Of a stretch of 64,000 bases of DNA, positions 2,495 to 24,262 are shown piece after piece (position 1 is the stretch's first letter; the number at the start of each line of letters is the position of its first letter). This stretch comes from a bacterium (GTDB taxonomy: Bacteria; Bacteroidota; Bacteroidia; CAILMK01; JACPUW01). The notes under the pieces are model-generated. The model did not search any database, had not been told where the DNA came from, and saw only the letters and a list, made by a program, of their open reading frames with translations. The position numbers were made by a program, and so were the translations under genes. The DNA is taken from contig WGNN01000037.1 in assembly GCA_016124515.1 (NCBI GenBank), forward strand, positions 13,171 through 77,170. Direction: 5' to 3'.

Positions 2495-4717
2495 CTAATT
2501 CACTACGAATTTGAAGGTTTCAACTTTGCCACCGCTACGGGCCGAAAGCAAATAAATACCGCTGTTGAAAGCCATTGTAGCGGTTTGCGCAGCCATGAGT
2601 TGCCGCTTTTCTACCAATTTTCCCTGCATATTGTACACGGTAATTTCTGTGGGAAAATTGCTTTCATTTCTAATATGAACCAAACTCTGCGATGGATTGG
2701 GAAACAGGCTGATGTTTCGTTGTACGGCAGGTACTTCGGCTACGCCCACCATCACGGAGTCTGTGCCAAACACTTCCAATCCGCCATTGAACGTTCCGGT
2801 GAGTAAGTCGGTTTTTCCATCGCCATTCAAGTCGCAAAAAACCGGTTTTATGTATTCGCCCAGGTCTTTGGCAAAATTGGCATTATAATATTGGTTGTGG
2901 TACCAAAAGGCATCGGGAATAAAATAAGTAGCGTTGACATCAATAGCCGGATAAAAGTACATTTTGCCCCATGCAGAACCCACCATCAGATCGGTTTTTC
3001 CATCGTTGTCTATATCGCCAATGGTAGGGTGCGAACCGCCCACACTCAGGTAGTTTTTTGTGCTGTCTATTATGTTTCCATTCCCGTCTTTGGTGTAGGT
3101 ATAATAAAAGGTATTGGTTTTTACATGTCCCCAGTTCTCTGTTTTCAAGGTAAAGGTAACACCTGCCCCACCTTTGTAATAATTCAGGTTGCCCGACAAT
3201 TCGCCGACAATCAAATCATTAATACCATCGCCATCTACATCAAACAAACAGGGGGCGGCGTTGGTACCCACATCAAGCCCTTCAATTTTGGTGGCATTTG
3301 TGCTGAAATTGAAAGCTGCTCCCGCTTTTGCATTGTTTTTATAATAATAAATCTCGCCCTTGTCGGTGCCCAATAGCAAGTCGGCCACACCATCATTGTC
3401 AATATCGCCAAAATGCGGATTGAGCAAGCCGTATTCATCATTTTTAAGTTGCAGAAAATCATCATCGGCCAGTGTAAAAACCGCCCGGCCATTTGCGGGT
3501 GTATTTATATAAAGCGAAAGACCCACCACCTGCAACGAAAAAACATTGTCGCTCAAATGGTTAACCCCGGCTACCAGCAAATCTTCATCGCCATCGCCAT
3601 CATAATCAAAAACGGCGGGCGATGCACTTGCGCCCAAATCTATCATTTGGTCTTGTAAAAAGTATTTGTTGCTCAGTTCAAAATCATAATAAGGTTGCGG
3701 GCCATTGGTATAGAGCCACACAAGGCCATTGAGCACCGGCGAGCTGCTTGTATTGGAGCAAATAAGGTCTTTTTCGCCATCAAAATTCACATCGGCCAAG
3801 CTGAACGATGGGAAATAGGTAATTTCAATGGGATTGTTGACCGGATACTCGGTATATAAAGTAACCATGCTGTCCACCTTCAGGTTATTATCGGCGCGGC
3901 CATTTTCCAAAAAATAGGCGTTGGGCGATGACAAATCAGAAACGAATAAATCCACATCGCCATCGCCGTTTTGGTCAAGGGCGAGTAAGCGGCTTCCGGG
4001 ATGTGCTTTTTTTGCCGCACCCAGCGAAATATCGAAATTGAGGCCATTTTCAATAAAAAAGCCCCATTTGGTAGTTACTTCTTCAAATAGCAACGATTTG
4101 CCTTTGCTAATATTTCTATAATAAATAACGCGTTGGCCGTTGTTGTCAAACACCAACACGTCGGGTCGGCCATCGCCATCAATATCGGCCATAGTGGGTT
4201 GCTCGCCAATCTGAAAAACTATGGGTTCGTCGCCATCGGGTGTTTGGTATTTCAATACCTTGCCCGGCGCGCTAAACCGTACCGAATCGCTGGATGCATT
4301 GAAAAAAACGCGTAGTTTGTCTTCGCCGGTTACCACATCCGTAAGGCCATCGCCATCCACATCAAGAAACAGCGAAAAAGCCGCCATACGGGGCAGAACT
4401 TCTTCAAGGTCTTTTTGCAAAATGTAGTGGTAGTTGCCGGCAGTTCCGCTGCGTTGGTACACCATTTTTCGGTCGTTAAAAACGTCCCAAGCCACAAGCT
4501 CTTCCACCCCATCGTTGTCAAGATCTATATTGCCAAAATAAGGCGATTGCAAGCCACCGGCAAAGCCCAAAACCGAGGTATCGGCATTTTGAACCAACAA
4601 GGGTTGCTGGTCGGCCACAAAGCGCACTTTCATGGCACGCTGGGCAAATGCAGGCGAAGCTACGAAGGCGCTAAACAAAACGGTAAACCACAAGGATGTT
4701 ATTTTTCTCAAGTTCAT
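2495..4717 (-). CDS. FG-GAP/VCBS-repeat protein with T9SS type-A C-terminal sorting domain
   Basis: Many DxDGDGxxD repeats (DVDGDGLTDVV, DIDGDGRPDVLV, DYDGDGDEDLLV, DIDNDGVADLLL, DVDGDGINDLIV, DIDNDGKTDLMV, DLNGDGKTDLL). C-terminal about 75 aa are Por_Secre_tail-like (LFPNPSQSLVHI...GIYLLSARSGGKVETFKFVVN). Signal peptide follows the internal ATG at 4717 (MNLRKITSLWFTVLFSAFVASPAFAQ). Confidence 0.85.
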   Translation of the reverse strand: MNLRKITSLWFTVLFSAFVASPAFAQRAMKVRFVADQQPLLVQNADTSVLGFAGGLQSPYFGNIDLDNDGVEELVAWDVFNDRKMVYQRSGTAGNYHYILQKDLEEVLPRMAAFSLFLDVDGDGLTDVVTGEDKLRVFFNASSDSVRFSAPGKVLKYQTPDGDEPIVFQIGEQPTMADIDGDGRPDVLVFDNNGQRVIYYRNISKGKSLLFEEVTTKWGFFIENGLNFDISLGAAKKAHPGSRLLALDQNGDGDVDLFVSDLSSPNAYFLENGRADNNLKVDSMVTLYTEYPVNNPIEITYFPSFSLADVNFDGEKDLICSNTSSSPVLNGLVWLYTNGPQPYYDFELSNKYFLQDQMIDLGASASPAVFDYDGDGDEDLLVAGVNHLSDNVFSLQVVGLSLYINTPANGRAVFTLADDDFLQLKNDEYGLLNPHFGDIDNDGVADLLLGTDKGEIYYYKNNAKAGAAFNFSTNATKIEGLDVGTNAAPCLFDVDGDGINDLIVGELSGNLNYYKGGAGVTFTLKTENWGHVKTNTFYYTYTKDGNGNIIDSTKNYLSVGGSHPTIGDIDNDGKTDLMVGSAWGKMYFYPAIDVNATYFIPDAFWYHNQYYNANFAKDLGEYIKPVFCDLNGDGKTDLLTGTFNGGLEVFGTDSVMVGVAEVPAVQRNISLFPNPSQSLVHIRNESNFPTEITVYNMQGKLVEKRQLMAAQTATMAFNSGIYLLSARSGGKVETFKFVVN

Positions 4718-5851: not shown

Positions 5852-7030
5852 TTATTCAACTGCTTGGAGTTCCCATTGGCCCGAATTCCGCTGCAGGATT
5901 AACTGTTCTATTGGTTTCAAACCATAAAACTCCATTCTCTTTTTGCGCTGCTTATCTTCAAGCTTGTTGTAGTTTCTTGAAACAAACAGGTACTGGACAG
6001 GATCATCATATTCAACAATAACTATACACGTCCCATCCTCTCGTGGCTGTACATCCTCAACTTTGAAATTCGGCACTTTACGATTAATCAACCCGTAACT
6101 GACATGATAATCTGCTAATTCTGTTTGCTCCTCAAACAAAAATGCCTTAAACAAATCCAGCTTAAATGAGCTTTCCAACTGATAATCGCCAGGAACAATA
6201 CCCGCCGTTGTCAAATTCTTTTTAAACTGTATTTCCTCTATACCATTGGAAAAAGAATAATAGTTGCGCTGGTACTTAGCTGTTTTCTCGTATGGAACAC
6301 AGCTGCGAATCAAATGATTTATGGTAACTTCTTGGGTATGCGGATAGGCATCCATCAGCCCCTTGTGCTGGGCATTAATCCACTCCAGGCACTGATTTAT
6401 GCGGCCTCGAATAATTTTATTAATTCTGACTTGATTTGGAAAAGCGATTTCTTTAGGAATCTCAATACGAACTGTTTTCCCGGGCTCAGCATTCTGTAAA
6501 TTTACCAAAGTATCATAACTACCCCAGTGTACTTTCACATTGCGGCTATCACTGTCTCTGTTTCGATAAAAAGGAAGAAAAAATGAACCTGAGTTGTTTG
6601 TTGTAGATATCTGGTCATATTCTGACAGGCTTAGCTCAGCGCCAACCACTGGTTCACCGGAAAGAACAACGTAGCCTTCAATGAAATCATAATTAAACTG
6701 GCAGTCATCGCTCAATACCAAAGATGCGGGGTTGGTTAAATATGCAAGACTAAAAGTACCCAACATCCATAACAACTTAAGAGGTACCCAATTTTCATTT
6801 TTAATAAATACCAATAACCCAATTGACATCCCTGAAATACCCGCGGCAAGTGCAATGCGCAAAACACTGTACTGCGCGCGGGTAGGACAAGGCACGGCAA
6901 ATACAATACACAGAACCAAAACAAACAGGAGGGTACCAAAAGCAACAGTTACCCAGCCTGATTTGTAATTGACAATCATATCGCGAAGTGCGATAAATCT
7001 ACCAGCTATACTATGATTAGCCTTACCCAC
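5852..7030 (-). CDS. Membrane protein with carboxypeptidase-regulatory-like beta-sandwich and unknown C-terminal domain
   Basis: 392 aa with three N-terminal hydrophobic helices. The segment IEGYVVLSGEPVVGAELSLSEYDQISTTNNSGSFFLPF resembles CarboxypepD_reg; the remainder is unrecognised. Its start shares one nucleotide (7030) with the HNH gene stop. Confidence 0.6.
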   Translation of the reverse strand: MGKANHSIAGRFIALRDMIVNYKSGWVTVAFGTLLFVLVLCIVFAVPCPTRAQYSVLRIALAAGISGMSIGLLVFIKNENWVPLKLLWMLGTFSLAYLTNPASLVLSDDCQFNYDFIEGYVVLSGEPVVGAELSLSEYDQISTTNNSGSFFLPFYRNRDSDSRNVKVHWGSYDTLVNLQNAEPGKTVRIEIPKEIAFPNQVRINKIIRGRINQCLEWINAQHKGLMDAYPHTQEVTINHLIRSCVPYEKTAKYQRNYYSFSNGIEEIQFKKNLTTAGIVPGDYQLESSFKLDLFKAFLFEEQTELADYHVSYGLINRKVPNFKVEDVQPREDGTCIVIVEYDDPVQYLFVSRNYNKLEDKQRKKRMEFYGLKPIEQLILQRNSGQWELQAVE

Positions 7031-7335
7031 TATCTATGACCATATTTACAAGTCCAATTGGGATAGTCATCTCCTTTGTGACGGTTGTTTTCCCACTGAA
7101 GTGGCTGCAGGTTAGAAATGTTATCATCTCCTCCCTTGGCTCTGGGTTTTATGTGGTCAATTTCCCATCCTGTCACCAATTCCCTACCGTGGTTAGTGCG
7201 AATAATCCTGACTCCACATGTGTCCATGCGCTCTACATTTGGATCTTTGCCGGGAATTGGAGTTCCCTTTTCCCAAACAGCATCTTTTTGGCTTTCGCTA
7301 AAGGATAGGCCACTTACTGTTTTGTTTCTACTCAT
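7030..7335 (-). CDS. Small stand-alone HNH endonuclease
   Basis: HNH core GWEIDHIKPRAKGGDDNISNLQPLQWENNRHKGD. ATG at 7335 is preferred over the track's GTG at 7395, which would read through direct-repeat element A. Confidence 0.8.
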   Translation of the reverse strand: MSRNKTVSGLSFSESQKDAVWEKGTPIPGKDPNVERMDTCGVRIIRTNHGRELVTGWEIDHIKPRAKGGDDNISNLQPLQWENNRHKGDDYPNWTCKYGHR

Positions 7336-7394
7336 TGTACTTGATTTAAAAATTTGATGCAAGATTTGCTCATTTGGTTTGGTATAGAAATTCA

Positions 7395-7424
7395 CTTTCT
7401 GAATGGCAACTTTTTCTTTCTGAA
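7395..7424 (-). promoter_or_regulatory. Direct-repeat element A (LytTR-box-like): CTTTCTGAA-N12-CTTTCTGAA on + strand
   Basis: Perfect 9-mer at 7395-7403 and 7416-7424 with a 12-nt spacer (tggcaacttttt). It lies 59 nt upstream of the HNH ATG (7335). Confidence 0.55.
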
Positions 7425-7451
7425 AGAGGTGAGCAACACGTCACAGCCAGC

Positions 7452-8489
7452 TCAATGTGATAAATATGGCACTTCGTGTGAAGTAACAATAACTTTTTTA
7501 ACGTCTCTCACAGCCCAGGTTTCTTCCAAAATAACGGCTGCAACTTCAATCGTTACGTTAATACCATACAAACGATCCGGATTTTTAATGCCAATGTAAA
7601 ATATTCCAGAGTTCAAATCGGTAATTTTAACAACTCCTGATTTAATATTTTGTCTGGAACCTATTGTTTTGTAATAAAAAGTTCCACCATTATTGTCAAC
7701 CTTTTGCTCAAACATGCGTGAATTATTGAAATCAAGAAGATATATATCACATACATTTCCTCCCGGGGGTGTTGTCAACATGCTAAGCGCAAAACCTAAT
7801 GACCCTGTTTGGTCCAGGGCGCTGGTAAGCTCACCTACCAGATTTAATCCACCAGTAGTTTTTTTTATCTGTTGTTCATCTCTATCCGCAGAAAATGTAT
7901 AGTACCATTCAACAGTGCCCGCGGGTAATTCAACGGGAATGGTTATTCTGGATGAACCACCTTTAAACAAACTATTACTACCGCTATTGATGTAGAAATA
8001 TTGTGGAGCCTGTACGCTTTTCGTAATGTACTTTTTTTCAACCAGATACTTTTCCTGTACAGTATAAAATGAAGAATCATGCTCAGTTCTCCAGTACACT
8101 TGTGGATTGAAGGAACTAAGGCTATCATGAGCAGGTGTGCGGGTAATGCTTAGTTGGCAAACCCGTTTTGCAACATTGGCATTATAAAGACGAATCAAGT
8201 AAATACCTGTTTCAACCGGCGTAAATGTAAAGGTAGAATTTGTGGTTTCATAATCTATAAAAAGCGAATAGTCGGGATATTGGTAGATCTCAATTTCCTT
8301 CAGGTCTTTACGGTCCTCTACACTTAGACTGACGTTTACCTGATCTCCTTTCGCAAATCCGTAATACAGCTTTTCCGATGTAAGCCCTGATACTTTAATG
8401 TGTAGGCTTGCAACAACAATTGGATCAAGCGCTAGTACAGATTGCCACAATACCGAAAAAAGAATTAGTAAATTAACTTTTTGCATCAT
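7452..8489 (-). CDS. Secreted hypothetical protein (beta-rich)
   Basis: 345 aa with an N-terminal signal peptide (MMQKVNLLILFSVLWQSVLA). No recognisable motif. Start overlaps the upstream gene's end by 17 nt. Confidence 0.6.
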   Translation of the reverse strand: MMQKVNLLILFSVLWQSVLALDPIVVASLHIKVSGLTSEKLYYGFAKGDQVNVSLSVEDRKDLKEIEIYQYPDYSLFIDYETTNSTFTFTPVETGIYLIRLYNANVAKRVCQLSITRTPAHDSLSSFNPQVYWRTEHDSSFYTVQEKYLVEKKYITKSVQAPQYFYINSGSNSLFKGGSSRITIPVELPAGTVEWYYTFSADRDEQQIKKTTGGLNLVGELTSALDQTGSLGFALSMLTTPPGGNVCDIYLLDFNNSRMFEQKVDNNGGTFYYKTIGSRQNIKSGVVKITDLNSGIFYIGIKNPDRLYGINVTIEVAAVILEETWAVRDVKKVIVTSHEVPYLSH

Positions 8490-9525
8490 AGTATTTGGTT
8501 GTTTCTATCAAATGTTCTGAAAAGTTATATATGTCGCTGGGCCTATTAATCTGGATTCTGTTTTCCGTCTTTTCATTATCAAACAGTCCAATGTATTTGT
8601 TTTTTGAATTGAAATGTAATCTGCAAATCGGTTTGCGGTTTGTGTTGTCAAGTAGTACTCCAAAATAAGATTGGGTATCTCTTGCAAAAACTCGCTCCGA
8701 GTCAATCACTTTACAAACAATAGCTTTTACAATATTGAAACCTTCTATTTCTTCTTCAGTTGTTATGATTTTTGAATCATTTTGATTATCTGGTTCTGAC
8801 TGTTCCTTTTGTTCATCAGTTTCCTTTTTAAGTGCCTTTTTGAGTCTATCGTTTATGATTTCATTAATATGCTGTGAGATGGCTTTTTTTATAAAATTTG
8901 AAAACTGTTCAACCAGCTTAGACGTGACCTTTCCGGTATATACTTGTTTGGCCAAAAATCTGGTAAACTCTTCAGATGGATTCGAAAACTCGTCTTCCAA
9001 CAATTTGCGCAGCGATTTGGTATATTTCATGTTCCCGGCAGCGTCAATAATGGTATTGACATCAAAGCTTGATTTGTGAAACTTAGCCAATTCTTGAATA
9101 TCAGAATCTTTGAGATGTTCTAGGTCAACTTCAAGAAATGGACGGGCATCCATTTTATTGTCATTTTCCAAGTCTGAAAAGAAAAGATATTTGACACCAT
9201 TAGTCAATAAAGCGAATCTGGATTGGGTAACTGCAAAATAGCGATACAATTGGCTATTATGGGCTTCCAAGTTCTCTTCCCAGTATTTGCATTCTATTAT
9301 TAGTATTGGATTTCCATCTTGAAGTAAAGCATAATCCACTTTTTCACCCTTTTTTGTGCCAATATCTGCTGTAAATTCAGGTTGAACTTCATCAGGGTTA
9401 AATACATCATATCCCAAAAGGGCTATAAAGGGCAAAACAAAGGCTGTTTTGGTAGCTTCTTCGGTTTGGATGTTGGCTTTGTATTCTTCAATTTTCTGGC
9501 TTAAGGCTTTCAGTGCTTCTTCCAT
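8473..9525 (-). CDS. HsdR_N (type I restriction enzyme R N-terminal / PD-(D/E)xK-like) domain protein
   Basis: N-terminal EEATKTAFVLPFIALLGYD...KVDYALLQDGNPILIIECKYW matches the HsdR_N-type nuclease fold motif (D...E-x-K). 350 aa, with no methylase or specificity genes nearby. Confidence 0.7.
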   Translation of the reverse strand: MEEALKALSQKIEEYKANIQTEEATKTAFVLPFIALLGYDVFNPDEVQPEFTADIGTKKGEKVDYALLQDGNPILIIECKYWEENLEAHNSQLYRYFAVTQSRFALLTNGVKYLFFSDLENDNKMDARPFLEVDLEHLKDSDIQELAKFHKSSFDVNTIIDAAGNMKYTKSLRKLLEDEFSNPSEEFTRFLAKQVYTGKVTSKLVEQFSNFIKKAISQHINEIINDRLKKALKKETDEQKEQSEPDNQNDSKIITTEEEIEGFNIVKAIVCKVIDSERVFARDTQSYFGVLLDNTNRKPICRLHFNSKNKYIGLFDNEKTENRIQINRPSDIYNFSEHLIETTKYYDAKS

Positions 9526-9567
9526 ATTGTAAGCTTTGATTTGATATATTCAAATAAATGAGGATTT

Positions 9568-9846
9568 TTATTGATAATCCTTATTATTTCCTGTCGGTGA
9601 TGTTGTTAAATTTACTATTACATTTGGGGTTTGATTCATTTTACCTGGTCCTATGTATCCATGCATTAAATTGTAATTATCTACCATGCTACTTAAGATA
9701 AATAAGTCGATTATCCACCCGATTCCGAAGAGCTGAAATGTTATAAGATAGAGTATCCCACTTCCAATTTTTCCGAGGTAAAATCTATGTAGGGAAAAAG
9801 CTCCAAGTAGGAACCAAAGCAAGTAAGCTACGCCTTTTGATTTCAT
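9568..9846 (-). CDS. TM2 domain membrane protein
   Basis: 92 aa; KGVAYLLWFLLGAFSLHRFYLGKIGSGILYLITFQLFGIGWIIDLF is the typical TM2 two-helix motif. Confidence 0.8.
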   Translation of the reverse strand: MKSKGVAYLLWFLLGAFSLHRFYLGKIGSGILYLITFQLFGIGWIIDLFILSSMVDNYNLMHGYIGPGKMNQTPNVIVNLTTSPTGNNKDYQ

Positions 9847-9852
9847 AATAGT

Positions 9853-10137
9853 TTATTTTTTACAAGTTTTACTTTTATTAGCGGAAACAAGGTTAGTACC
9901 TGGAACCAGTTCTACGCTTCCAGATGCTCGGTTGTGTACATTGCAGAATGGTACAATGTACCAGTTGTCGTCATAGGTCTCATCTTTCTGTACATGTGCG
10001 CCGACAAGGTCGGACCGGAAACATCCACTTGCTCTACATATTGTTGCGGTTTGGTTACTGTAATTTCTCCAATGCTGGAGCCAACTGCCACAATTACACT
10101 TATTCTGTGATGTTCCATTAATATTTTTAACTTTCAT
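9853..10137 (-). CDS. Cys/His-rich 94-aa protein, possible zinc-binding beta-beta-alpha-Me (HNH-like) mini-nuclease
   Basis: CNCGSWLQHW...CRASGC...GAHV...WYIVPFCNVHN. ATG at 10137. The stop is 6 nt from the TM2 gene start. Confidence 0.6.
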   Translation of the reverse strand: MKVKNINGTSQNKCNCGSWLQHWRNYSNQTATICRASGCFRSDLVGAHVQKDETYDDNWYIVPFCNVHNRASGSVELVPGTNLVSANKSKTCKK

Positions 10138-10184
10138 GATTTTTCGCTCAAAAATTCACATGTGACAGATCAAAAGGAACTTAA

Positions 10185-10214
10185 TTTTCCGAACGGCGTA
10201 ATTTTCCTTCTGAA
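10185..10214 (-). promoter_or_regulatory. Direct-repeat element B: TTTTCCGAA-N12-CCTTCTGAA on + strand
   Basis: Two related 9-mers with 21-nt periodicity and spacer cggcgtaatttt. It lies 47 nt upstream of the ATG of the 94-aa gene. Confidence 0.5.
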
Positions 10215-10222
10215 AGGTAGAT

Positions 10223-10699
10223 TCATATCTCTTTATAATTCCATTCCACACTTAAAACTAGTACGATTTCGCTACTATCATTCCGCAGAGTAATCTCCCT
10301 CTTTCCTTCATAGTCCTTTGGCGTAAACAGATAACCTCCCATGTATTCATCACCACTGGTACTGTCATAGTCCCATAAACCTATACTATGTTGCAATGAG
10401 TAATTATCTACATATACAGGCAAATTCCTGATGTAATTATAGGTATTGGAGTTTACACACTCATCATAGTATTCACTGGTATAAAATCTATTACCATTAA
10501 GCACAATAGCAACATAGATATCAGGGTAACTTGACCATATGTCCCAATCCTTGCCATTATTGGTGTTGGGAAACCCAGCTACTGATATTTTATTAATCTG
10601 CATTTTAGAGAGTACTAAGTTAGGCTCATCATCAGTTTGACAAGATGCCACAAAAGCAAGCATTGACACAATAAAGAAAAAAATCAAATTTCTTTTCAT
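10223..10699 (-). CDS. Hypothetical lipoprotein
   Basis: 158 aa; signal peptide plus lipobox (LAFVASC). No recognised domain. Confidence 0.6.
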   Translation of the reverse strand: MKRNLIFFFIVSMLAFVASCQTDDEPNLVLSKMQINKISVAGFPNTNNGKDWDIWSSYPDIYVAIVLNGNRFYTSEYYDECVNSNTYNYIRNLPVYVDNYSLQHSIGLWDYDSTSGDEYMGGYLFTPKDYEGKREITLRNDSSEIVLVLSVEWNYKEI

Positions 10700-10704
10700 T
10701 GGTA

Positions 10705-11127
10705 TTAATCTTTTAGGATTTCAATAGATGTTTTCTTATTAGTGAGCCAATAAGCGACTCCCCCATGATGTGAGCACGTTCCGCTGCCTGTTGATGAACT
10801 GCTAGATCCATCACGGCACTGAGCTCCGGTCCTAACGTAATATGTGTGGTATATTGCCTTACCAAGACATACTTGGTTTGCTAATATATAGCCTGTATCA
10901 AGATCGTATGACACTTTGAGCCATTCGTTTTCAACTTTCTGAAGGACAATTAGGTTATCGTACTGTTTCAGTGTTCGCTTTGCTTCTGCATCGGCTGTGG
11001 GCCTTTGCCTGAGTTTTGCATAAGAAACAGAAACGTAATAATTTTGTGCGGTTTGAGCCAGTGTTGAAAACACCAAGCCAACAAAAATCAATGTAATAAT
11101 TAATATATGGTTTTTCATAACATTCAT
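10705..11127 (-). CDS. Secreted SH3b-like + DUF3761 protein
   Basis: Signal peptide, then an SH3-like segment (YVSVSYAKLRQRPTADAE...EWLKVSY), then a DUF3761 signature (CRDGSSSSSTGSGTCSHHGGVAYWL). Confidence 0.65.
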   Translation of the reverse strand: MNVMKNHILIITLIFVGLVFSTLAQTAQNYYVSVSYAKLRQRPTADAEAKRTLKQYDNLIVLQKVENEWLKVSYDLDTGYILANQVCLGKAIYHTYYVRTGAQCRDGSSSSSTGSGTCSHHGGVAYWLTNKKTSIEILKD

Positions 11128-11354
11128 TTACACAACCATTTTTCTACCCCACCATGCCCTGAACAAGCCCCGCTTCCGGTGGCTTTGCTAAAAGTGCCGT
11201 CCTTGCATTGACAGCCTATTCTGTCGTTTTCTCCGTAGATGCACTCATGAGAGCCCTTAAAATGGGGATCTTCCGATTCAATTGTTTTTGAGCAACAAGC
11301 ACTCACGCACAAAAAGATAAATATTGATAGTGACTTAAGCATCGGCTTTGTCAT
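11124..11354 (-). CDS. Secreted DUF3761 protein
   Basis: 76 aa; signal peptide; CQCKDGTFSKATGSGACSGHGGVEKWLC. 4-nt overlap with the downstream gene. Confidence 0.65.
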   Translation of the reverse strand: MTKPMLKSLSIFIFLCVSACCSKTIESEDPHFKGSHECIYGENDRIGCQCKDGTFSKATGSGACSGHGGVEKWLCK

Positions 11355-11775
11355 TTATAAGTGCGGCTCTTTCAACTTGATTTATAAATTCAATAACCCT
11401 TTTCCTGCCCATGCGCGTTGTATGAAACCTCACAATATCTCCGCCCATTGTAGCTATGGTAAAATAATGTCTTCTGGTAAGAAAATAAGCCAATAATCCA
11501 GTCATACCCGTTAATAGCCCGGCAGCGGTAATAAAATCCTCCCTTTCAGATGCGCCATAACTTGCAATGAAAATGCCGGCGACAAGAACTAATAGAAGTG
11601 CGGGACGACTTTTATATGCCACTGTAATAGATGCCATCCTTGAAAGCAACATGCTTACTACATGGGCACGCCCCCATGACGAGTCATGATACCTCAACCT
11701 TAAGTTGGTTAATGTTATCAGTTTGTTTTCAGATTGGGTAATTATTTCTTCTCCTGGTATATATTCTATACTCAT
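11335..11775 (-). CDS. Membrane protein with bacterial PH-like organisation
   Basis: 146 aa. N-terminal beta segment (ITQSENKLITLTNLRLRY), two central hydrophobic helices, and a C-terminal segment (GGDIVRFHTTRMGRKRVIEFINQVERA). Overlaps both neighbours. Confidence 0.5.
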   Translation of the reverse strand: MSIEYIPGEEIITQSENKLITLTNLRLRYHDSSWGRAHVVSMLLSRMASITVAYKSRPALLLVLVAGIFIASYGASEREDFITAAGLLTGMTGLLAYFLTRRHYFTIATMGGDIVRFHTTRMGRKRVIEFINQVERAALINDKADA

Positions 11776-12650
11776 ACTTGATTTCCTTTATTATTAATAT
11801 TTATAGTCATATCTCTCGATGAAATGTACTTGCCTTTTACAGTAGTGTTCTTTCCCAGAAAAACCGCTCCGGAGTTTTCAATAACAGTATGGTTTTTTGA
11901 TGTACTGTTTTCAGTAATTTTTGCACCCACTTTGTTTATAGTTAAAATATATTGCATTGCAAGTGCAAGATGTTCAGTAGTTATTATTTGCTCTTGTGGC
12001 AACTCCGGAAAAACTGACTTTAGCTCATCAATATCAGCATCATACCACAGTGGAATTACCAGCGCGTTAATATCTTTATCCAACTCATAAAACACTTTCA
12101 ATTGATCATAAAATGAACTTATAAAAAATTCTTGGTTAAGAATAAGCAAACACTTTTTGCCTTTAACAATTTTTCTAAAATTGCAACCACCCTTACAATC
12201 TATAAGCTCAAACTTTAATTCCGGCTCCTGTCCTTGGTATAAAGAGTTTTTTACCTGTGGATTAATAAATTTCTCATCTTCCGGATTGCAAATAATATGT
12301 ATAAAATCATCAACCACTTGGTTTGTTGGATATAAAACAATAGATTTTTCCACCTTTAACAACCATTCATTAAAATCTTTAAAATTCTCGTATCCAAGAT
12401 AATTGCAAAGCTTATCCACTTTGTCTTTCCCCAAGGAGATAGTTGACGAGTTCGGATCAGATGCCCGCTCAATAGGTTTTACAACATGCTCATCAAGGTA
12501 TCTCTGATTAATTTCCGTTTCTTCTGGCTTATAACCATCATTTATTTTCATTTCTAATTCAAGCAGACCACTCCTCGAAAGGTCTGTACCGGCTTTTGCT
12601 GCCGCCATTTTAATGATAATAGAAATCTGCTTTACTGAAAAACTGGGCAT
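11772..12650 (-). CDS. Hypothetical cytoplasmic protein
   Basis: The track ORF extends to 12794, but the first ATG is at 12650 (MPSFSVKQ...). The upstream extension overlaps the regulator gene and contains element C. No motif recognised. Confidence 0.55.
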   Translation of the reverse strand: MPSFSVKQISIIIKMAAAKAGTDLSRSGLLELEMKINDGYKPEETEINQRYLDEHVVKPIERASDPNSSTISLGKDKVDKLCNYLGYENFKDFNEWLLKVEKSIVLYPTNQVVDDFIHIICNPEDEKFINPQVKNSLYQGQEPELKFELIDCKGGCNFRKIVKGKKCLLILNQEFFISSFYDQLKVFYELDKDINALVIPLWYDADIDELKSVFPELPQEQIITTEHLALAMQYILTINKVGAKITENSTSKNHTVIENSGAVFLGKNTTVKGKYISSRDMTININNKGNQV

Positions 12651-12702
12651 GAGTAAACATTTGTTCGCAAAATGAAACACATGCCAACTTTGGGCAAACC
12701 TA

Positions 12703-12732
12703 TTTTCTAAACGCCGTAAATTTGTTTCTGAA
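12703..12732 (-). promoter_or_regulatory. Direct-repeat element C: TTTTCTAAA-N12-GTTTCTGAA on + strand
   Basis: 21-nt periodicity; spacer cgccgtaaattt is nearly identical to that of element B. It lies 52 nt upstream of the ATG at 12650. Confidence 0.5.
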
Positions 12733-12738
12733 CGACAT

Positions 12739-13476
12739 CTAAATGGTTGGGAACATTGACTTGACTGACTCAATATAAGTTTTCCCGATATCAATTTTGT
12801 CAGCGCCTATCATTACTCTATTGCCATCCAACCCTGTGATATGGTCAAGATTTACAATATGGCTTTTGTGTATTTGTCTTAACCTATGGTTTATTGAGTG
12901 AGACTCTATTTGCCTCATAAACTTTGCCATGCTGATTGACAGGCTATATGTCTTATGAACGGTATGAACTTCACAGTAAGAAGAATCGGCATCTATCCAG
13001 GTAACATCATAGATACTTACCTTTTCGTAGGTATCTTTAGACTTTAAGAAGATACAGTCATCATAGAGATGTTCTGCCTTTTTGATAGAACCCACCATAT
13101 CGTTGTGGTAATCCATTGCCAATTCAATAGCCTGAGTCAAATTAAGATTAGACACTGGTTTGGTCAGATAAGCAAACGGCCTTGATTCTTTTGCCTTATT
13201 GAATGTTTCAATATTATCTAAATGGGTAAGAAAAACAATAGGAATGTTCCATTGTTCCTTTATCTCTTTTGCAGTTTCAATACCATTTTTATCACCTTTT
13301 ATTTCAATATCCATCAAAATCAAATCAGGTAACCTTTTCCTTATAGCATCAAAAGCTAAACCCGCACTGTCGGCAACATCAACAGATGAATAGCCAAGCC
13401 GTGACAGCTTGTTGGTAATATCAGCAGCTACCAAAAACTCATCTTCAACTAAAAGAATTCTAACAGGAGAAACCAT
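12739..13476 (-). CDS. Response regulator, receiver + LytTR DNA-binding domain
   Basis: ILLVEDE, DLILMDIEIKGDKNG and FLTHLD are receiver motifs. C-terminal LytTR motifs are VTWIDADSSYCEVHT...LRQIHKSHIVNLDHI. ATG at 13476 is preferred. Confidence 0.85.
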   Translation of the reverse strand: MVSPVRILLVEDEFLVAADITNKLSRLGYSSVDVADSAGLAFDAIRKRLPDLILMDIEIKGDKNGIETAKEIKEQWNIPIVFLTHLDNIETFNKAKESRPFAYLTKPVSNLNLTQAIELAMDYHNDMVGSIKKAEHLYDDCIFLKSKDTYEKVSIYDVTWIDADSSYCEVHTVHKTYSLSISMAKFMRQIESHSINHRLRQIHKSHIVNLDHITGLDGNRVMIGADKIDIGKTYIESVKSMFPTI

Positions 13477-13533
13477 ACCTAATGCTTTTAACCAAAACAA
13501 AGTTAGAAAGATACGACAACAATCTGTCCACAA

Positions 13534-13563
13534 AATTTAAAACGCTGTAAAATAATGTTTTAT
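13534..13563 (-). promoter_or_regulatory. Degenerate copy D of the direct-repeat element
   Basis: AATTTAAAA-cgctgtaaaata-ATGTTTTAT. The spacer is clearly related to B and C, but the half-sites are weak. It lies 57 nt upstream of the regulator ATG (13476). Confidence 0.3.
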
Positions 13564-13764
13564 GCGGTTCATATTCCTTGTTCACGTCTCGGTTTTGTTT
13601 ACTACAAAATTCAATCGGATATTTTTGACAATGGAGTCGCGACACATCTGTAGGCAGGCAAAACGCCAATACTCTTTGACAGGCCAGAATAGTTTTATCT
13701 CCCCTACCCTTCACTTATTCTTTGATTAAAGGAGTTCACCGCTTCTGATTATCCTGAATTTGAG

Positions 13765-13782
13765 AGCCAATTGCAATTGGCT
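13765..13782. promoter_or_regulatory. Perfect 18-bp palindrome AGCCAATTGCAATTGGCT in the divergent intergenic region
   Basis: Read directly from the sequence. It lies between the divergently transcribed LytTR regulator and TPR kinase genes. Confidence 0.4.
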
Positions 13783-13922
13783 TATTCAATGGACACTACC
13801 AAATAGTAAGTAGCCTTGATTTCGTCTGCGTTGTGCATCCCTTATTTTTGTGCATGAACTACACTGCAAACATTTTGATGTACCACGCCATGATTACACT
13901 TCATAGTTAAACTTTGCTTACA

Positions 13923-15806
13923 ATGGTTAAGCCAAAAAATATAGCAGACATTCCAAAGGTGCTCATTTTACCGTTAATCTTAATCCTGGCAAACTGCCAA
14001 CTGAGTGGTCAGGAAATAAATGACCTTTCAATCATTAAAAAAAAGCAGGAAAACATAAGAAAACTGATCGAAGAAAAACAATATACACCCGCTCTTGAAA
14101 TTGCAGAAACGATAGTGCAGTTGGGTAGAAAACAAGAAAACATATATTGGATGGCATTGGGTTGGGCACACACAGGAGAGATATACCAAAAACAAAAGAA
14201 AAATAAAATTGCACTGGAGTACTACGAACGAATTTTATCTACTCAACATCAATGGAGTAATGATGCATTCCTATTAAATGTTATATACAATATTGGATTA
14301 ACTCATAAACAAATGTCAAACCTTGATTTGGCATCTTCATATTTTCACGAATTTCTTGAGATAGAACGTCAGTCAGAGTTAAAGCACCCGGAATGGACAG
14401 CCAAAGTATATGATGCGCTTGGAAATATTCAACGTGAACTGAAAGAGTTTGACAAATCACTGCGATACCATTTCAAATGCCTGAAAATAGTTAAACCAGA
14501 GAATGACTTCGCAATAATGGCAACGTCATACAACAACTTAGGCCATACATATATGGACATGGGAAAACCTGATTCTGCCAGATTCTTCATCAATAATTCC
14601 ATTAGACTCAAAAGAAAAATTAATAGCAATAATAATTTGGGTTATTCCTATCACCTGTTGGGGAAACTCTATTATGACCTTGACCAGACAGATAGTGCTT
14701 CTATATATCTTTGGATGGCCCGAAAACTACACGATGCGGAAGGCCAAACAGATCAATGCACTTATGTTTTAGTTGATTTGGCAAAAACACAATTATTAGC
14801 CGGAAAACCCGACTCAGCACTATTTACCATTGAAAGTGCACTGAACATTGCACAGAAAATTGACAGTAAAGATTTGTTGGCTCTTGCTTACCGACAAAGA
14901 AGCTATATATATGAAGATCTGAGCAACTTGAAAGGTGCTCTCCGAGACATGGAATCATATGAGCCTTTAAGAGAAGAAATATTGGACGAAGTCAGACAAC
15001 ATGCCCTTTCAGAGCTTGAAATCAAATACCATTTAAATGAAGCAAAGGAAAATCTGCTCGTTGAAAAAGAGAGGCTACAGCTGAGCACTGCACGTGTTAG
15101 TAACCAACGACTATGGATATTGGTTTTGGTTTTGGCGGTTGTTGTAATGGCTCTTTTTGTATATATTCTTAGAAGCAATGTAAAAAAGGAACGACAACTA
15201 AAAGAACAAGAGAAAAAGCTCCTGAAAGAACTTCATCACAGAGTAAAGAATAATTTAAGCAACCTGTCGGGTTCTCTGGCCATTCAAGTCGATATGGCAA
15301 GTAACTCTAATGTTATTGAAGCACTGGAAAACCATAGAAAACGATTAGATGCAATTGCCCTTCTTCACGAAGAACTTTTTGATCCGGCCGGCTCCGAAAG
15401 AAAATCTCAGGTTGACTTCACTGCATTTGTAGAGAAATTATGCCAAAGCATTATAAGTGCAAGTATCTGGAATAACAAAATTGACCTTGAGTTGAAATTG
15501 GATAAAGTAAGTCTTCCAATGAATGAGGCAATTCCACTTGGCATGATGGTTAATGAAATAATTACAAATGCAGTTAAGCATGCATTCGCTGAAGTAAAAT
15601 CACCATCACTGGAAGTGATCTTGTCAAAAAATGAAGACTTTATTATTGAAATAAAAGACAATGGAATTGGTTTCAAAGATAATATCCTTCCACAGTCAAC
15701 ATCTGTAGGCATGGCAATCCTCACAGGCCTGGCTTCTCAGTTAGACGCTAAACTATTATTTGAGAGTAAATCCGGTTTAAAAGTGAGCATAATATTGAAT
15801 AAATAA
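13923..15806 (+). CDS. TPR-repeat sensor histidine kinase (HisKA_2-type H-box + HATPase_c)
   Basis: N-terminal signal/TM, multiple TPR-like repeats, coiled coil, and a TM helix (LWILVLVLAVVVMALFVYIL). H-box ELHHRVKNNLSNLSGSL. ATPase boxes MMVNEIITNAVKHAF and KDNGIGF. First ATG at 13923; the track start at 13914 is TTG. Confidence 0.85.
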   Translation: MVKPKNIADIPKVLILPLILILANCQLSGQEINDLSIIKKKQENIRKLIEEKQYTPALEIAETIVQLGRKQENIYWMALGWAHTGEIYQKQKKNKIALEYYERILSTQHQWSNDAFLLNVIYNIGLTHKQMSNLDLASSYFHEFLEIERQSELKHPEWTAKVYDALGNIQRELKEFDKSLRYHFKCLKIVKPENDFAIMATSYNNLGHTYMDMGKPDSARFFINNSIRLKRKINSNNNLGYSYHLLGKLYYDLDQTDSASIYLWMARKLHDAEGQTDQCTYVLVDLAKTQLLAGKPDSALFTIESALNIAQKIDSKDLLALAYRQRSYIYEDLSNLKGALRDMESYEPLREEILDEVRQHALSELEIKYHLNEAKENLLVEKERLQLSTARVSNQRLWILVLVLAVVVMALFVYILRSNVKKERQLKEQEKKLLKELHHRVKNNLSNLSGSLAIQVDMASNSNVIEALENHRKRLDAIALLHEELFDPAGSERKSQVDFTAFVEKLCQSIISASIWNNKIDLELKLDKVSLPMNEAIPLGMMVNEIITNAVKHAFAEVKSPSLEVILSKNEDFIIEIKDNGIGFKDNILPQSTSVGMAILTGLASQLDAKLLFESKSGLKVSIILNK

Positions 15807-15827
15807 AGGGGGCGTACTGCCCCCTTT
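15805..15827. terminator. Bidirectional hairpin between convergent genes
   Basis: AAAGGGGGC-gtact-GCCCCCTTT is a 9-bp perfect stem, A-rich on the 5' side and T-rich on the 3' side. It sits directly after the kinase stop. Confidence 0.6.
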
Positions 15828-15849
15828 AACTACTCCAAACCGAGCAATT

Positions 15850-16275
15850 CTACAAAACCAACTGAATGGTAAAGGTTGTATCACTTTGATAAAAATGATA
15901 TGCCGAAGTATATTGAACACTTCCTCCCACAGGTGTAACACCGAAATAATACCAACCAGGATTTACCTGAATTGCAAAATCGCCGTTACTATCTGCAAAA
16001 GTTCCTCCCACCGAAATTGAAGTCAAATTATCAAATACTTCAACTGCAGCACCACCGATAGGATCGAGGTTTTGATCAACTAATGATATAAAACCTATTG
16101 GGTCTTCCTCGTCTCCACCACAACAATCAAATCCCGTGTCCATAGTCATATCAACAACGTTGCAGGTGTCTATGTGTGGGCCATTCATTAACTTACCAGA
16201 AGGCCCGGAGCTACTTATACCAATAAACAAAACAGCAATAAAAGGCCATGTAAAAGAAAAAAGATATTTTTTCAT
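15850..16275 (-). CDS. Small secreted protein with carboxypeptidase-regulatory-like fold
   Basis: Signal peptide follows the ATG at 16275 (MKKYLFSFTWPFIAVLFIGISS). The segment LVDQNLDPIGGAAVEVFDNLTSISVGGTFADSNGDFAIQVNPGWYYFGV is CarboxypepD_reg-like. Confidence 0.5.
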   Translation of the reverse strand: MKKYLFSFTWPFIAVLFIGISSSGPSGKLMNGPHIDTCNVVDMTMDTGFDCCGGDEEDPIGFISLVDQNLDPIGGAAVEVFDNLTSISVGGTFADSNGDFAIQVNPGWYYFGVTPVGGSVQYTSAYHFYQSDTTFTIQLVL

Positions 16276-16873
16276 GATTTTAGATTTTATGCCCTTTCTC
16301 AGGAAGAATATGGATATACCATCCCCTGGCATATTTAAATGCATAAAAAGAGCTATTAGTAAAAAATTTGATCTCTCGGCCTTTTACACAACAGAGTTCC
16401 GGCTATCTGTCAAGTAATCAGCCTGCTACCCATTCATCATATTATCTCAATTTTATTCATTGAACTTTCGCTGTACGATATAGCAACCTTGTTGACTTAA
16501 AGTACTCGTCCAAACTCATTTTTTTGAGCATTGTGTGATGGCCATCATTTTTCTGATTAATTGATCTTGCCGACTATATGATCAGAGCTATTAATCAGTT
16601 AGTTGATGAATGAATCATGGTTCAAATATCTGATGTTGAATTGTGATGACCTTCCGGGGAATTTCCTTAGAAATCCCGGGAATTATAAGTAAATAACATA
16701 CTCATTCATTTAATTATGAAGTTATGTGAGATCTGCTTTGGTAACCAAGAAGTTTCCATGCTGCAAAGTGAGATGCCGCTATGTATAACACACACGCTAT
16801 AATTCAGGAGGCAACAATATTTTTGATGCATTGCTCCTGTATTTGTTTCTTTGCAGTCTTGCTACATTTACTT

Positions 16874-17653
16874 ATGAGCCATGTAAAACATTTGGAACTG
16901 AAACCCAACGACGGCCAAACCTGGGTGATTGGCGACATACACGGCTATGCCAAAACTTTTGAAACCGTCATGCAAAAAATAGCTCCTTCGGCTACAGATC
17001 GCGTGATTTTGCTCGGCGATTTGGTGGATCGCGGACCCGACTCAAAAGGGGTGTTTGATGCTATAATGCGCTATAGAAAAGAAGGTGTTGACCTGCTGCT
17101 GGTGCGCGGCAACCACGACGACCTGATGCATAAAAGCTATGTGGAAGAGCAGGAAAACACCGGCTTTTTAAAATTTATAAAACGCGACTACACCAAGCGA
17201 AGCTGGATAAACATGGGCGGCGACACTACCTTGCAGAGTTTTGGCGCCAAAAAAATGGTGGAAATCGATACCGTTTATTATGATTTGATAGAAAGTATGT
17301 ACCACTACATTGAAGACGAAAACCATTTGTACGTACATGCCGGTTTTGATTTCACCCAAGCACAACCCTTTGAAAATGAACAGGCCATGATGTGGATTCG
17401 CGATTTTAAACCGGATAAAAAGCAAACGAAAAGCAAAACCATAGTGCACGGCCACACACCACTTGACCTTGAATTTATTACAGATGTAATTGAAAACGCG
17501 GGCAGCTACGGATTTATAGCACTCGACAACGGAATATCTATAGACAAGCAAAAAAATAAAGGCCATTTATTGGCTTATGAAACCAAAAGCAAAAAACTCA
17601 TTGTACAGAGCCGGCAAGATGCCGCCACCGGCGCGGGCAAATATGGGTATTGA
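16874..17653 (+). CDS. Metallophosphoesterase (PPP-family Ser/Thr phosphatase / ApaH-like)
   Basis: Motifs GDIHGY, LLGDLVDRGPDS, RGNHD, VHGHTP. Internal ATG at 16874 is preferred over the hydrophobic N-terminal extension. Confidence 0.8.
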   Translation: MSHVKHLELKPNDGQTWVIGDIHGYAKTFETVMQKIAPSATDRVILLGDLVDRGPDSKGVFDAIMRYRKEGVDLLLVRGNHDDLMHKSYVEEQENTGFLKFIKRDYTKRSWINMGGDTTLQSFGAKKMVEIDTVYYDLIESMYHYIEDENHLYVHAGFDFTQAQPFENEQAMMWIRDFKPDKKQTKSKTIVHGHTPLDLEFITDVIENAGSYGFIALDNGISIDKQKNKGHLLAYETKSKKLIVQSRQDAATGAGKYGY

Positions 17654-17655
17654 GC

Positions 17656-18396
17656 CTACTCGCCATAGGCGCAATGAAAAAATTGGCTGAGTGTATCGGC
17701 TCCGCACACAATTTTAAACCTGAGAATTTCGCCGTAGTTCAAATCTGTTACGGGTATTATTTTTCCGGTTGAAACGGCCTTCAAATACGCATCTGAATGC
17801 ATGTTTCTGATATCGGCGCGTGTAATTGCCTGTGTATGTTGCTCCAAAAAATGAAGGCTGATTTTGTACCAATACAAGTGGTTGTTTATGTTGTAAAACA
17901 CTGTCTTATATGCACTTCCATTAATGTACAAAGCAGGAAAGTGGCTGCCAGCACTGCCCTGCACACCCGGTGTAAATACCGCTATATAGAGGTTGGTAGC
18001 CGGATTCCATTCAGCTCCGTTGGGGCCGCCCCCATGATGCCCGAAAAGGTTGTCCAAATCCTTGTTAGCCTCTATATCGTTTGATTTTTGTCTCAGCCAT
18101 TTCATAACTTCTGCTGAATCGGCACGCGCATTTTTATCGTCCAACTCATAAAAACAATAGGCGGCCATTTTGCCTGAATCCTCGTGGTTCAATTCAGGGC
18201 TCTTTTCTTCAACCATTTCTACCGTTGCCCTTTTTTTGCAGGCAGTTGAGCTTGCAAGCAAAAGGAAGGCAATAGCAAGTGCATTAATGAAATGGTGGGA
18301 GGTGGTGGATGGTTTTTTATGTGTTCTCACCAAAAATTGATTTTGCCAAACATACGGCAAATTGGTCTGTGGTATGTTGGCGATAGAATAAAACAA
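17656..18396 (-). CDS. Hypothetical lipoprotein
   Basis: 246-aa ORF with a lipobox-like LLLASSTAC. No recognised domain; start uncertain. Confidence 0.5.
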   Translation of the reverse strand: MFYSIANIPQTNLPYVWQNQFLVRTHKKPSTTSHHFINALAIAFLLLASSTACKKRATVEMVEEKSPELNHEDSGKMAAYCFYELDDKNARADSAEVMKWLRQKSNDIEANKDLDNLFGHHGGGPNGAEWNPATNLYIAVFTPGVQGSAGSHFPALYINGSAYKTVFYNINNHLYWYKISLHFLEQHTQAITRADIRNMHSDAYLKAVSTGKIIPVTDLNYGEILRFKIVCGADTLSQFFHCAYGE

Positions 18397-18475
18397 GCAG
18401 GTGTGAAACTTCTAGTCGATGTTTTCATTCATGGTTCTAAAATACTCTGAGACAACTTTACTTAAGTCAGGCTCC

Positions 18476-19237
18476 TTATTTATCTATAATTGCCCGGTAG
18501 TCATACTCTTGGGGCAGGCGAACCCTATTATCATAAAAAACCAATGATTCATTCCGGTTGGGAAACGAGTAACTATACTCAACAGTTAATTGCCCTTCAG
18601 ATAGCTGTTGAATTGCAATGTCAATAATTTCGATGGGGGTTATCCTTCCATTTTCCAGTTTATATTTTGCAGCAGTGCCGCCACCTAAACCATAAGAATA
18701 TTCTGTAATTATCCCCAATTCAGGATAAAAGGCCGGATTTTTTAATTGCCAACAACTATCAGAAAATTCATCCAAATTTTTATCATAAAAATATACATCA
18801 ACCGTGTTCTTTAACCCCGTTCCATTTAAGCCATAGTATTCAAAAAACAAATCGTTAAAGCCATCTAAGTTGAAATCAAGCAATCCGAAACGTGGTTGCT
18901 CCATAGTGTATCTTTCGCTTATTTTGAATGGAATTTTAATGGTTGAATCATTCACGCAACTCGCATGTGGTTTTTTAAAGCGTAGGCTATCCACGAGCCT
19001 AATATTGAGATAGTTGTGGTAAATATTACTTTGATCTTTCTCGATAATACCTATGGAATCAAATTCGGTTTTAGCCTGCGCATCATCATGTGGCGAATCG
19101 CTCAATTTATTATCATTGATGTGCTTATTTATTTCCTTGTTTTTAATTTCGGGCAATTTATTGGGTTGACATGCCGAACAAAACAGAAATATCCATAGAC
19201 AATGAAAAAGCAATTTTATCCTATACGATTTGTTCAT
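18476..19237 (-). CDS. Hypothetical lipoprotein
   Basis: ATG at 19237 gives MNKSYRIKLLFHCLWIFLFCSAC (lipobox). One FG-GAP-like segment (LDFNLDGFNDLFF). Confidence 0.55.
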   Translation of the reverse strand: MNKSYRIKLLFHCLWIFLFCSACQPNKLPEIKNKEINKHINDNKLSDSPHDDAQAKTEFDSIGIIEKDQSNIYHNYLNIRLVDSLRFKKPHASCVNDSTIKIPFKISERYTMEQPRFGLLDFNLDGFNDLFFEYYGLNGTGLKNTVDVYFYDKNLDEFSDSCWQLKNPAFYPELGIITEYSYGLGGGTAAKYKLENGRITPIEIIDIAIQQLSEGQLTVEYSYSFPNRNESLVFYDNRVRLPQEYDYRAIIDK

Positions 19238-19288
19238 TATACCAGCTTGGTTGGTTTCTTGGTTGTGCGATTTACATGATTTCAATTG

Positions 19289-20886: not shown

Positions 20887-20919
20887 TAATTTATTAATGA
20901 TTTCATTCGCACTCCAATT

Positions 20920-21594: not shown

Positions 21595-21600
21595 CTATTC

Positions 21601-22026: not shown

Positions 22027-22297
22027 ATTGTTGTTCTATAAGTTCGAAATGAATGAGTGGTGCTTGAAACATTTCAGTCACCATACATAGTTTTGGTTTG
22101 GAAATGTAGCACCAAAATGGTTTATACGGTTGTTGTTGCGCAGATTTTTATTTGAGTGGATGGGTATTGCTTTCCTTTAAGGCTGGTAGTAATTCTTTCA
22201 GGACTTTTAAGTGTGCATATCCCTTTTTAAGGCAACCTAGCTTTTAATAAGGCGTGGCGCCATCAGATTTTTCTACCAATTGCCTGCCGATTGTGGT

Positions 22298-24260: not shown

Positions 24261-24262
24261 AA

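Follow-up and report, generated by a model that had tools for sequence, protein, structure and literature searches.

In a 64-kb stretch of DNA, called the window when its whole length is meant, three 30-nt boxes (A, B and C) punctuate a string of minus-strand genes lying next to the gene of a LytTR-type response regulator. The boxes exist, share a definite architecture, are specific in sequence and are conserved alongside the regulator gene. The phosphorylated regulator (12739-13476) probably binds A, B and C head-to-tail and activates three internal promoters atop read-through transcription, and we put the probability of this reading at about 0.7; that this protein is the one that binds, that it activates and does not repress, and where transcription starts are all inferred. 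The three boxes and the regulator gene are placed as follows.

7395..7424, minus strand: box A, TTCAGAAAG-aaaaagttgcca-TTCAGAAAG in gene sense, with the ATG of the HNH gene 59 nt downstream
10185..10214, minus strand: box B, TTCAGAAGG-aaaattacgccg-TTCGGAAAA in gene sense, with the ATG of a Cys-rich 94-aa open reading frame (ORF) 47 nt downstream
12703..12732, minus strand: box C, TTCAGAAAC-aaatttacggcg-TTTAGAAAA in gene sense, 6 nt past the regulator stop codon and with the p292 ATG 52 nt downstream
12739..13476, minus strand: response regulator of 245 aa with receiver (REC) and LytTR domains (Pfam Response_reg 1.9e-19, LytTR 5.5e-10)

A direct check of the sequence confirmed the coordinates and letters that the original prediction had given for A, B and C. 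The distances to the ATG (59, 47 and 52 nt) also held, as did the claim that the boxes occupy the three largest gaps of the gene string, which measure 116, 85 and 88 nt, the next-largest being 42 nt. Only 6-27 nt separate each box from the preceding stop codon. That a LytTR regulator is encoded beside the boxes was borne out by Pfam; Asp56 is its predicted phospho-acceptor, and its receiver domain is closest to PhyR/PdtaR-type receivers.

The degenerate pattern proposed earlier matched A, B and C with 0-1 mismatches, and four matches were reached in 0 of 100 shuffles. Since this pattern was derived from A-C themselves, leave-one-out matrix scans were run on both strands of the window as an independent test. 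A matrix built from any two copies ranked the third as the top non-training site, with scores of 23.6, 30.8 and 25.5 bits for the held-out copies versus 13.3-17.2 bits for the next match. A matrix trained on ten boxes, including boxes from the related islands described below, gave no fourth window site above 10.5 bits.

In the mechanism that we propose, a membrane kinase with TPR repeats and a HisKA_2 domain, encoded divergently from the regulator, would sense an envelope signal and phosphorylate the regulator, which would then bind the box head-to-tail as a dimer and recruit RNA polymerase, raising transcription from three internal promoters. Box C would serve the genes from p292 through the lipoprotein gene, box B those from the Cys-rich ORF through the secreted 345-aa gene, and box A the HNH gene and g392. 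The kinase gene was absent from the original prediction, and its ATG at 13923 is taken from the gene call on L001, a Logan contig identical to the window (L-numbers denote the other contigs and loci compared). The genes of the island are listed below.

13923..15806, plus strand: sensor kinase with a signal/transmembrane segment, TPR repeats, a transmembrane segment, HisKA_2 and HATPase_c (Pfam)
11772-12650, minus strand: p292, without a Pfam family, first gene behind box C
11335-11775, minus strand: PH-like membrane protein of 146 aa, behind box C (Pfam)
11124-11354, minus strand: DUF3761 protein, behind box C (Pfam)
10705-11127, minus strand: SH3_3 and DUF3761 protein, behind box C (Pfam)
10223-10699, minus strand: lipoprotein, last gene behind box C (block 10223..12650)
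9853-10137, minus strand: Cys-rich 94-aa ORF, first behind box B, gene call disputed
9568-9846, minus strand: TM2 protein, behind box B (Pfam)
8473-9525, minus strand: HsdR_N endonuclease-like protein of 350 aa, behind box B (Pfam; phrog_4225 'endonuclease', 9e-133)
7452-8489, minus strand: secreted 345-aa protein, last behind box B (block 7452..10137)
7030-7335, minus strand: HNH nuclease, behind box A (Pfam HNH 2.4e-7)
5852-7030, minus strand: g392, a 392-aa membrane protein, behind box A (block 5852..7335)
15850..16344, minus strand: small CarboxypepD_reg-domain gene, a conserved flank of the island (Pfam)

An ortholog search with the regulator (contig scan and word-indexed protein search) yielded relatives that were at best 31-38% identical and lacked boxes, and three of these (L082-L084) had different neighbour genes. 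Orthologs at 47-51% regulator identity were missed by these searches and were reached through the DNA motif, g392 and p292. When metagenome contigs were scanned for exact matches to a degenerate pattern of the box 29 nt long, 41 loci emerged, among them a syntenic island on a 208-kb seawater contig (L117), which runs CarboxypepD_reg gene, kinase facing the regulator, box, p29x (the p292 family)/PH-like/DUF3761 genes, variable genes, secreted 34x-aa gene, second box, HNH and g392. A LytTR hidden Markov model (built from P0001-P0056) found a regulator on L117 only among the 41 motif loci. Many of the other matches were confounders and were not counted; some of these were coding heptad repeats (IQKEKEA four times in L094; also L093, L103 and L106), others the iteron-like arrays described below. 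Protein searches with g392 and p292 added four full islands (L126, L127, L128 and L130) and a fragment (L129); g392 has only five homologs, at 60-65% identity, each in a syntenic island. A HMMER search with a p29x alignment retrieved 80 family representatives at E <= 1e-3, and the distant members on L131, L132 and L133 again stand directly after a REC-LytTR gene.

Motif scan and protein searches together placed the island in eight other assemblies. A LytTR regulator is present in all eight related islands whose contig reaches its gene, and the divergent pairing with a TPR/HisKA_2 kinase in all eight whose contig reaches the kinase gene; on L132 and L133 the regulator likewise faces a TPR-HisKA_2 kinase gene, and the L131 contig is too short to reach it. 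The order p29x, PH-like protein, DUF3761 is kept in L117 and L126-L130, and the CarboxypepD_reg neighbour recurs in L117, L126, L127, L128, L130 and L133. In 8 of 9 genomes, all from uncultured Bacteroidota (the window, L117, L126, L127, L128, L130, L132 and L133), a box of the same consensus stands 5-7 nt after the regulator stop codon and ahead of the p29x gene, and its distance to the p29x ATG is 52-53 nt in six islands. All five genomes having the HNH gene (the window, L117, L126, L128 and L130) carry a box before it, and L127 and L129 lack both the HNH gene and its box. The HsdR_N homologs of L132 and L133 are 52-53% identical to the window protein, and a box precedes the operon with the 52% identical homolog in L133. 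Across the islands the regulators are 35-66% identical, the kinases 25-48% and the p29x proteins 30-61%. Box A of the window and its L117 counterpart agree at 27 of 30 positions; the sequence just upstream does not align, and downstream of the boxes conservation is confined to short promoter-like stretches.

The boxes of L130, L132 and L133 were outside the training set of the ten-box matrix, and it scored these islands at the expected places (L130 31.9 and 34.4 bits, L132 42.8 bits, L133 25.5 and 30.6 bits), whereas 1.25 Mb of loci that carry paralogous REC-LytTR genes yielded at most 20.9 bits. The core of the original prediction, that the elements are LytTR-type operators of the adjacent regulator, is therefore strongly supported by the joint retention of box and REC-LytTR gene in 8 of 9 islands, and also by the absence of the motif from the loci of paralogous regulators. 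In L131 the position of the box and its periodicity of about 21 nt are kept and the repeat has changed to A[CG]AAACT, the outcome expected from co-evolution of a regulator with its site.

Boxes B and C are identical at 24 of 30 positions and share a downstream CATGTG, from which B probably arose by duplication of C; B occurs in the window lineage only and sits in the variable part of the island. In a rival reading the elements would not be transcriptional operators at all, but remnants of local duplication, of recombination or of sites resembling iterons, or else a signal acting in the RNA. Tandem arrays with a 21-nt period and the TTCAGAAA core do occur on mobile-element-like contigs, and would fit such an origin. 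Against it, position and sequence of the boxes are kept while the flanking DNA has diverged and the proteins have fallen to 30-60% identity, box and start codon keep a constant spacing of 52-53 nt, RNAalifold found no conserved structure (0 pairs) in 15 box sequences, and the island contains no recombinase or replication gene. We therefore regard a non-operator origin as very improbable.

The arrays themselves are intergenic and consist of 3-6 units of 21 nt (L105 697-760; L096 2966-3070; L112 8806-8870 and 9374-9500). Their contigs carry ParA, primase-like and helix-turn-helix genes, and the two arrays of L112 face each other about 600 nt apart; as iteron-like, these matches were not counted as boxes. 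Within the window, ACATTTACGCCGGTTGAAACA at 8208-8228 (minus strand), inside the coding region of the secreted 345-aa protein, matches the cores of both B and C at 15 of 21 positions; it has no in-phase partner unit beside it and is thus probably due to chance.

Comparing 15 boxes from 8 genomes revealed a 9-N12-9 direct-repeat layout throughout, with both units in the same orientation and a centre-to-centre period of exactly 21 bp in 15 of 15. Distal T1, T2, G5, A6 and A7 and proximal T22, T23 and G26-A29 are invariant, and each unit has a C at -2. The ten-box consensus is TTcAGAAAG-AAAAAnnCGCCn-TTCaGAAAg with a C two bases ahead of each 9-mer, indicating that the true unit is CnTTCAGAAAG with a 21-bp period. 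Hence the 9-N12-9 layout of the original consensus (TTCAGAAAR-N12-TTYRGAAAR) stands and its repeated unit is refined to 11 bp. What had been described as a conserved spacer consists of an A-tract that follows the distal unit, together with the proximal unit's C at -2. Two direct 11-bp units with this period lie on the same helix face. LytTR sites are reported to consist of 9-bp repeats 12 bp apart bound by dimers (PMC2766830), and the island shows three features of this operator class, namely direct repeats of about 9-10 bp, a 12-bp spacer and a LytTR gene in the same locus.

Behind the boxes we located the following predicted promoter elements.

12668..12698, minus strand: predicted core promoter behind box C, with a -33-like TTTG at 12695-12698 and a -7-like TCATTTTG at 12668-12675
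10149..10156, minus strand: putative -7-like element AATTTTTG behind box B, from sequence reading
7360..7367, minus strand: putative -7-like element AAATCTTG behind box A, its CTTG kept in L117, L130 and L133

In 15 of 15 promoters the box is followed after 4-5 nt by a -33-like TTTC/TTTG (+5 to +8) and at about +32 by an invariant TT that is part of a TTTG/CTTG element; the -7-like element lies about 27-28 nt past the box end. The -7 box of flavobacterial sigma-A promoters is TAnnTTTG at -12 to -5 (PMC9723704), and by this geometry the box would span about -41 to -70 relative to the predicted start and sit just ahead of the -33 element, the usual position of an activator site. The host is of Bacteroidota type, as indicated by type IX secretion system sorting domains in neighbouring genes and by TAnnTTTG boxes upstream of genes, including TAACTTTG. 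A scan for sigma-70 promoters and terminators showed no enrichment and nothing between the units, and is uninformative for the promoters of a Bacteroidota genome. Reading the box itself as a promoter of extracytoplasmic-function sigma or sigma-54 type was rejected on inspection because the spacings do not fit.

The same promoter region bears on the sign of regulation. The adjacent regulator might bind the boxes and repress or attenuate, either as a roadblock to read-through or because the box overlaps the core promoter, in which case the true -7 element of box C would be TAGGTTTG at 12695-12702, abutting the box. A perfect TAnnTTTG does directly follow box C, and with the boxes 6-27 nt past the preceding stop and no terminator between, a bound protein would stand in the path of the elongating polymerase. 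However, the box-adjacent TAnnTTTG occurs at box C of the window only; the other 14 promoters have TTTC/TTTG without TA, matching a -33 element, all 15 have the TTG-containing element about 32 nt further on, and LytTR regulators with such site geometry (AgrA, SilA) are activators in the studied cases. Repression thus seems quite unlikely to us, and activation from the boxes is preferred.

Several observations weigh against activation by the adjacent regulator. The cores of AgrA, ComE, PlnC and AlgR sites are of the form (A/C)(C/A)GTT, which the consensus TTCAGAAAG does not resemble. The core TTCNGAA is a 3+1+3 palindrome and would equally suit a symmetric dimer on each unit, and the consensus stays the same among regulators that share just 35% identity, which is uncommon constancy for a determinant of specificity. 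A second REC-LytTR regulator is encoded in the window (29377-30120), three more lie near the L130 island, and the motif also stands upstream of unrelated lipoprotein genes on L102, a contig without a regulator. Finally, the implied 5' leaders are short, about 7-20 nt.

Most of these points would be accommodated if the boxes were real operators of another protein, either a LytTR paralog such as that at 29377-30120 or a protein whose DNA binding has gone unrecognised. The conserved p29x, which is helical over its first 100 residues, would be an example of the latter, and such a protein might bind each TTCNGAA as a symmetric dimer. TTCNGAA is palindromic in 5 of the 6 window half-sites, and p29x, which has no known function, always follows a box. 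On the other side, the bases kept outside the core are not symmetric: each unit has a C at -2 and ends in AG on its 3' side, and the A-tract follows the distal unit only. The units are always direct and never inverted repeats. The LytTR regulator is the only always-adjacent protein with a recognised DNA-binding domain, no other recognisable DNA-binding protein being found in the conserved island, and p29x has no DNA-binding match in Pfam, in the PDB sequence search or in Foldseek. A paralog is disfavoured by the absence of the motif from paralogous loci. Another binding protein is accordingly unlikely, though a little less so than repression, and the adjacent regulator stays the preferred ligand.

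Two of the loci just named deserve description. The second LytTR system of the window (26436-30120) comprises a 978-aa Reg_prop/Y_Y_Y/His_kinase (PF06580) kinase followed by the 247-aa REC-LytTR regulator, and there is no TTCAGAAAG box near it. On L102, a 4.5-kb contig, a promoter region of about 100 nt occurs in duplicate (1549-1599 and 4356-4406, minus strand), and each copy has three in-phase units (TTCGGAAAA / TTCAGAAAG / TTCAGAAAA, 21-nt period) ahead of paralogous lipoprotein genes. No homologs of these lipoproteins were found in the window or the islands; the L102 promoters may belong, as distant members, to a regulon of this type in a different Bacteroidota genome.

The original prediction had further claimed a fourth, degenerate copy, autoregulation of the regulator and four transcription units, and these parts are not supported. 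The sites concerned are the following.

13534..13563, minus strand: claimed copy D, not supported as a box
13498..13505, minus strand: perfect -7 box TAACTTTG, 22 nt upstream of the regulator ATG, the regulator's own promoter and without a box

Window matrix scans ranked copy D between 286th and 4325th, and its match of 14 of 21 positions to the C core is common to about 25 other window positions. It has no counterpart in the orthologous islands, where the regulator-kinase spacer is only 54 nt in L117 and L130. The window shows no credible box ahead of the regulator gene, and neither do 7 of 8 relatives, L117, L126, L128, L130, L132 and L133 among them; the one in L127 is weak (16.7 bits). With D failing and the orthologs lacking such a box, direct autoregulation is not supported. 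In place of four units, three box-driven promoters are proposed; since no terminator-like site was found in any gap between the units, these promoters probably lie inside a gene string that is read through and do not mark off insulated units, and the boxes probably add induced transcription to what comes from upstream.

The regulator-kinase intergenic region that holds the claimed copy D (window 13477-13922) measures 446 nt as opposed to 54-119 nt in the orthologous islands and has only small ORFs, reflecting insertion or degeneration there. It also contains TATTTTTG at 13843-13850, a -7-like box for the kinase gene.

To characterize the cargo, its proteins were compared with NCBIfam, PADLOC and PHROGs, which gave generic HNH and endonuclease labels only. 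No described defence system was found with the PADLOC models, only generic HNH-to-Cas9 domain matches and a weak DpdJ match. The p29x family (about 290 aa) has an invariant C-terminal motif, SGAVFxGxNxxxxGKYISSRDMTINI, in its 80 representatives, and 40 members had no Pfam match. The AlphaFold models of p292 and g392 were poor (mean predicted local distance difference test score 51.5 each), and Foldseek of the p292 model against the PDB gave no match with E < 0.7. With a 40-sequence p29x profile (alignment A5), the middle region produced sub-threshold TIR matches in the PDB at E values of about 0.08 (TcpB 0.079, 4c7m 0.082); this TIR reading was dropped, as hhalign against one TIR_2 protein did not reproduce it.

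The Cys-rich 94-aa ORF displays a CxC...C...C / GAHV / CNVHN pattern resembling a zinc-stabilised HNH-like finger. It had no database match and no homolog in the related islands, and on L001 the gene caller preferred a 68-aa ORF (9912-10118) that is out of frame with it.

Nuclease-like proteins recur in the cargo (HNH; HsdR_N in the window, L132 and L133; Endonuclease_NS in L133), where they accompany membrane and secreted proteins. Such nuclease-rich cargo is suggestive of a defence role, at which it hints without being evidence of it. We entertain, as a speculation more doubtful than not by a wide measure, that the kinase-regulator-box-p29x module is a signal-inducible switch for nuclease-rich envelope cargo, forming an undescribed inducible defence or DNA-degradation/scavenging system of marine Bacteroidota, of which p29x could be the effector. 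In L132 the module adjoins a Cas9-like gene (13458-16870; HNH_4, RuvC_III; >1365 aa), and L130 encodes a TIR_2 protein with a further LytTR regulator on either side.

Together with its neighbours the island makes up a low-GC block (window ~6000-26000, G+C 36-41% versus 44-48% in the flanks), which suggests horizontal acquisition. Rfam and tRNA scans of the window gave no matches. Further along, and unrelated to the boxes, lies a minus-strand cluster of DUF5682 (748 aa, 2.5e-242) and DUF5691 proteins (38768-46668), with an AAA_15/AAA_21 ATPase (47242-48219) and a Metallophos protein (48288-49541) nearby.

The original statement that no described system has such gene content agrees with our literature search, which found nothing, though this is absence of evidence only; the search likewise returned nothing on the motif or on Bacteroidota systems that join HisKA_2 to LytTR. 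Bacteroidota have many LytTR regulators, but in searchable papers we found neither a described binding site for one nor a description of a LytTR regulator paired with a HisKA_2 kinase. The present analysis gives a precise conserved operator (CnTTCAGAAAG, 21-bp period) and a defined small regulon, with about 40-80 related modules (protein clusters at 50% identity). The operator offers a handle on the kinase signal and on the function of p29x, the PH-like membrane protein, DUF3761, g392 and the HsdR_N-like nuclease.

Among known systems, the loci of AgrA (P2/P3), ComE, BlpR and PlnC/D in Firmicutes are alike in having two direct repeats of about 9 bp, 12 bp apart and just upstream of the -35 equivalent, a REC-LytTR regulator in the same locus, and several promoters per locus that carry the box. 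They differ in their (A/C)(C/A)GTT-type core, in their HPK10 peptide receptor where the island has a TPR and HisKA_2 kinase, and in their peptide and exporter genes, whereas the island holds no peptide or ABC-exporter genes. In addition, the island's regulator promoter has no box, hence no direct positive feedback, and its host is a Bacteroidota with -33/-7 promoters. Without an autoregulatory box, an HPK10 kinase or peptide and exporter genes, the island is not a peptide quorum-sensing circuit of the agr, com, blp, pln or sil kind. The SilA operator of group A Streptococcus has 10-bp repeats with an 11-bp spacer, an extra conserved base extending the 9-mer (PMC2766830); the island shares its 21-bp period, and its own unit extends to 11 bp via the C at -2. 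Sequence, host and sensor differ, and sil is an autonomous quorum-sensing locus that includes an autoinducer peptide.

In the BtsS/BtsR and YpdA/YpdB systems of gamma-proteobacteria, divergence of the signalling proteins has left the regulator motif in place from genus to genus (PMC5552118), which parallels the retention of our motif despite protein divergence, and the regulon is similarly small. Their kinases, however, are of the His_kinase (PF06580)/5TM-LytS type, sense pyruvate and have transporters as targets, while the island has a HisKA_2 kinase whose TPR repeats are periplasmic and, as predicted targets, genes for uncharacterised envelope proteins and nucleases; with HisKA_2 (PF07568) and not PF06580, the island is not a LytS/LytR system. 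PdtaS/PdtaR and PhyR-type HisKA_2/HWE pathways share the HisKA_2 kinase and the closest receiver type, but their output is an ANTAR or sigma-like domain, in contrast to the DNA-binding LytTR domain here. Taken together, the island most likely holds an ordinary kind of switch over an undescribed gene set; its consensus is new, and it reveals no new regulatory principle.

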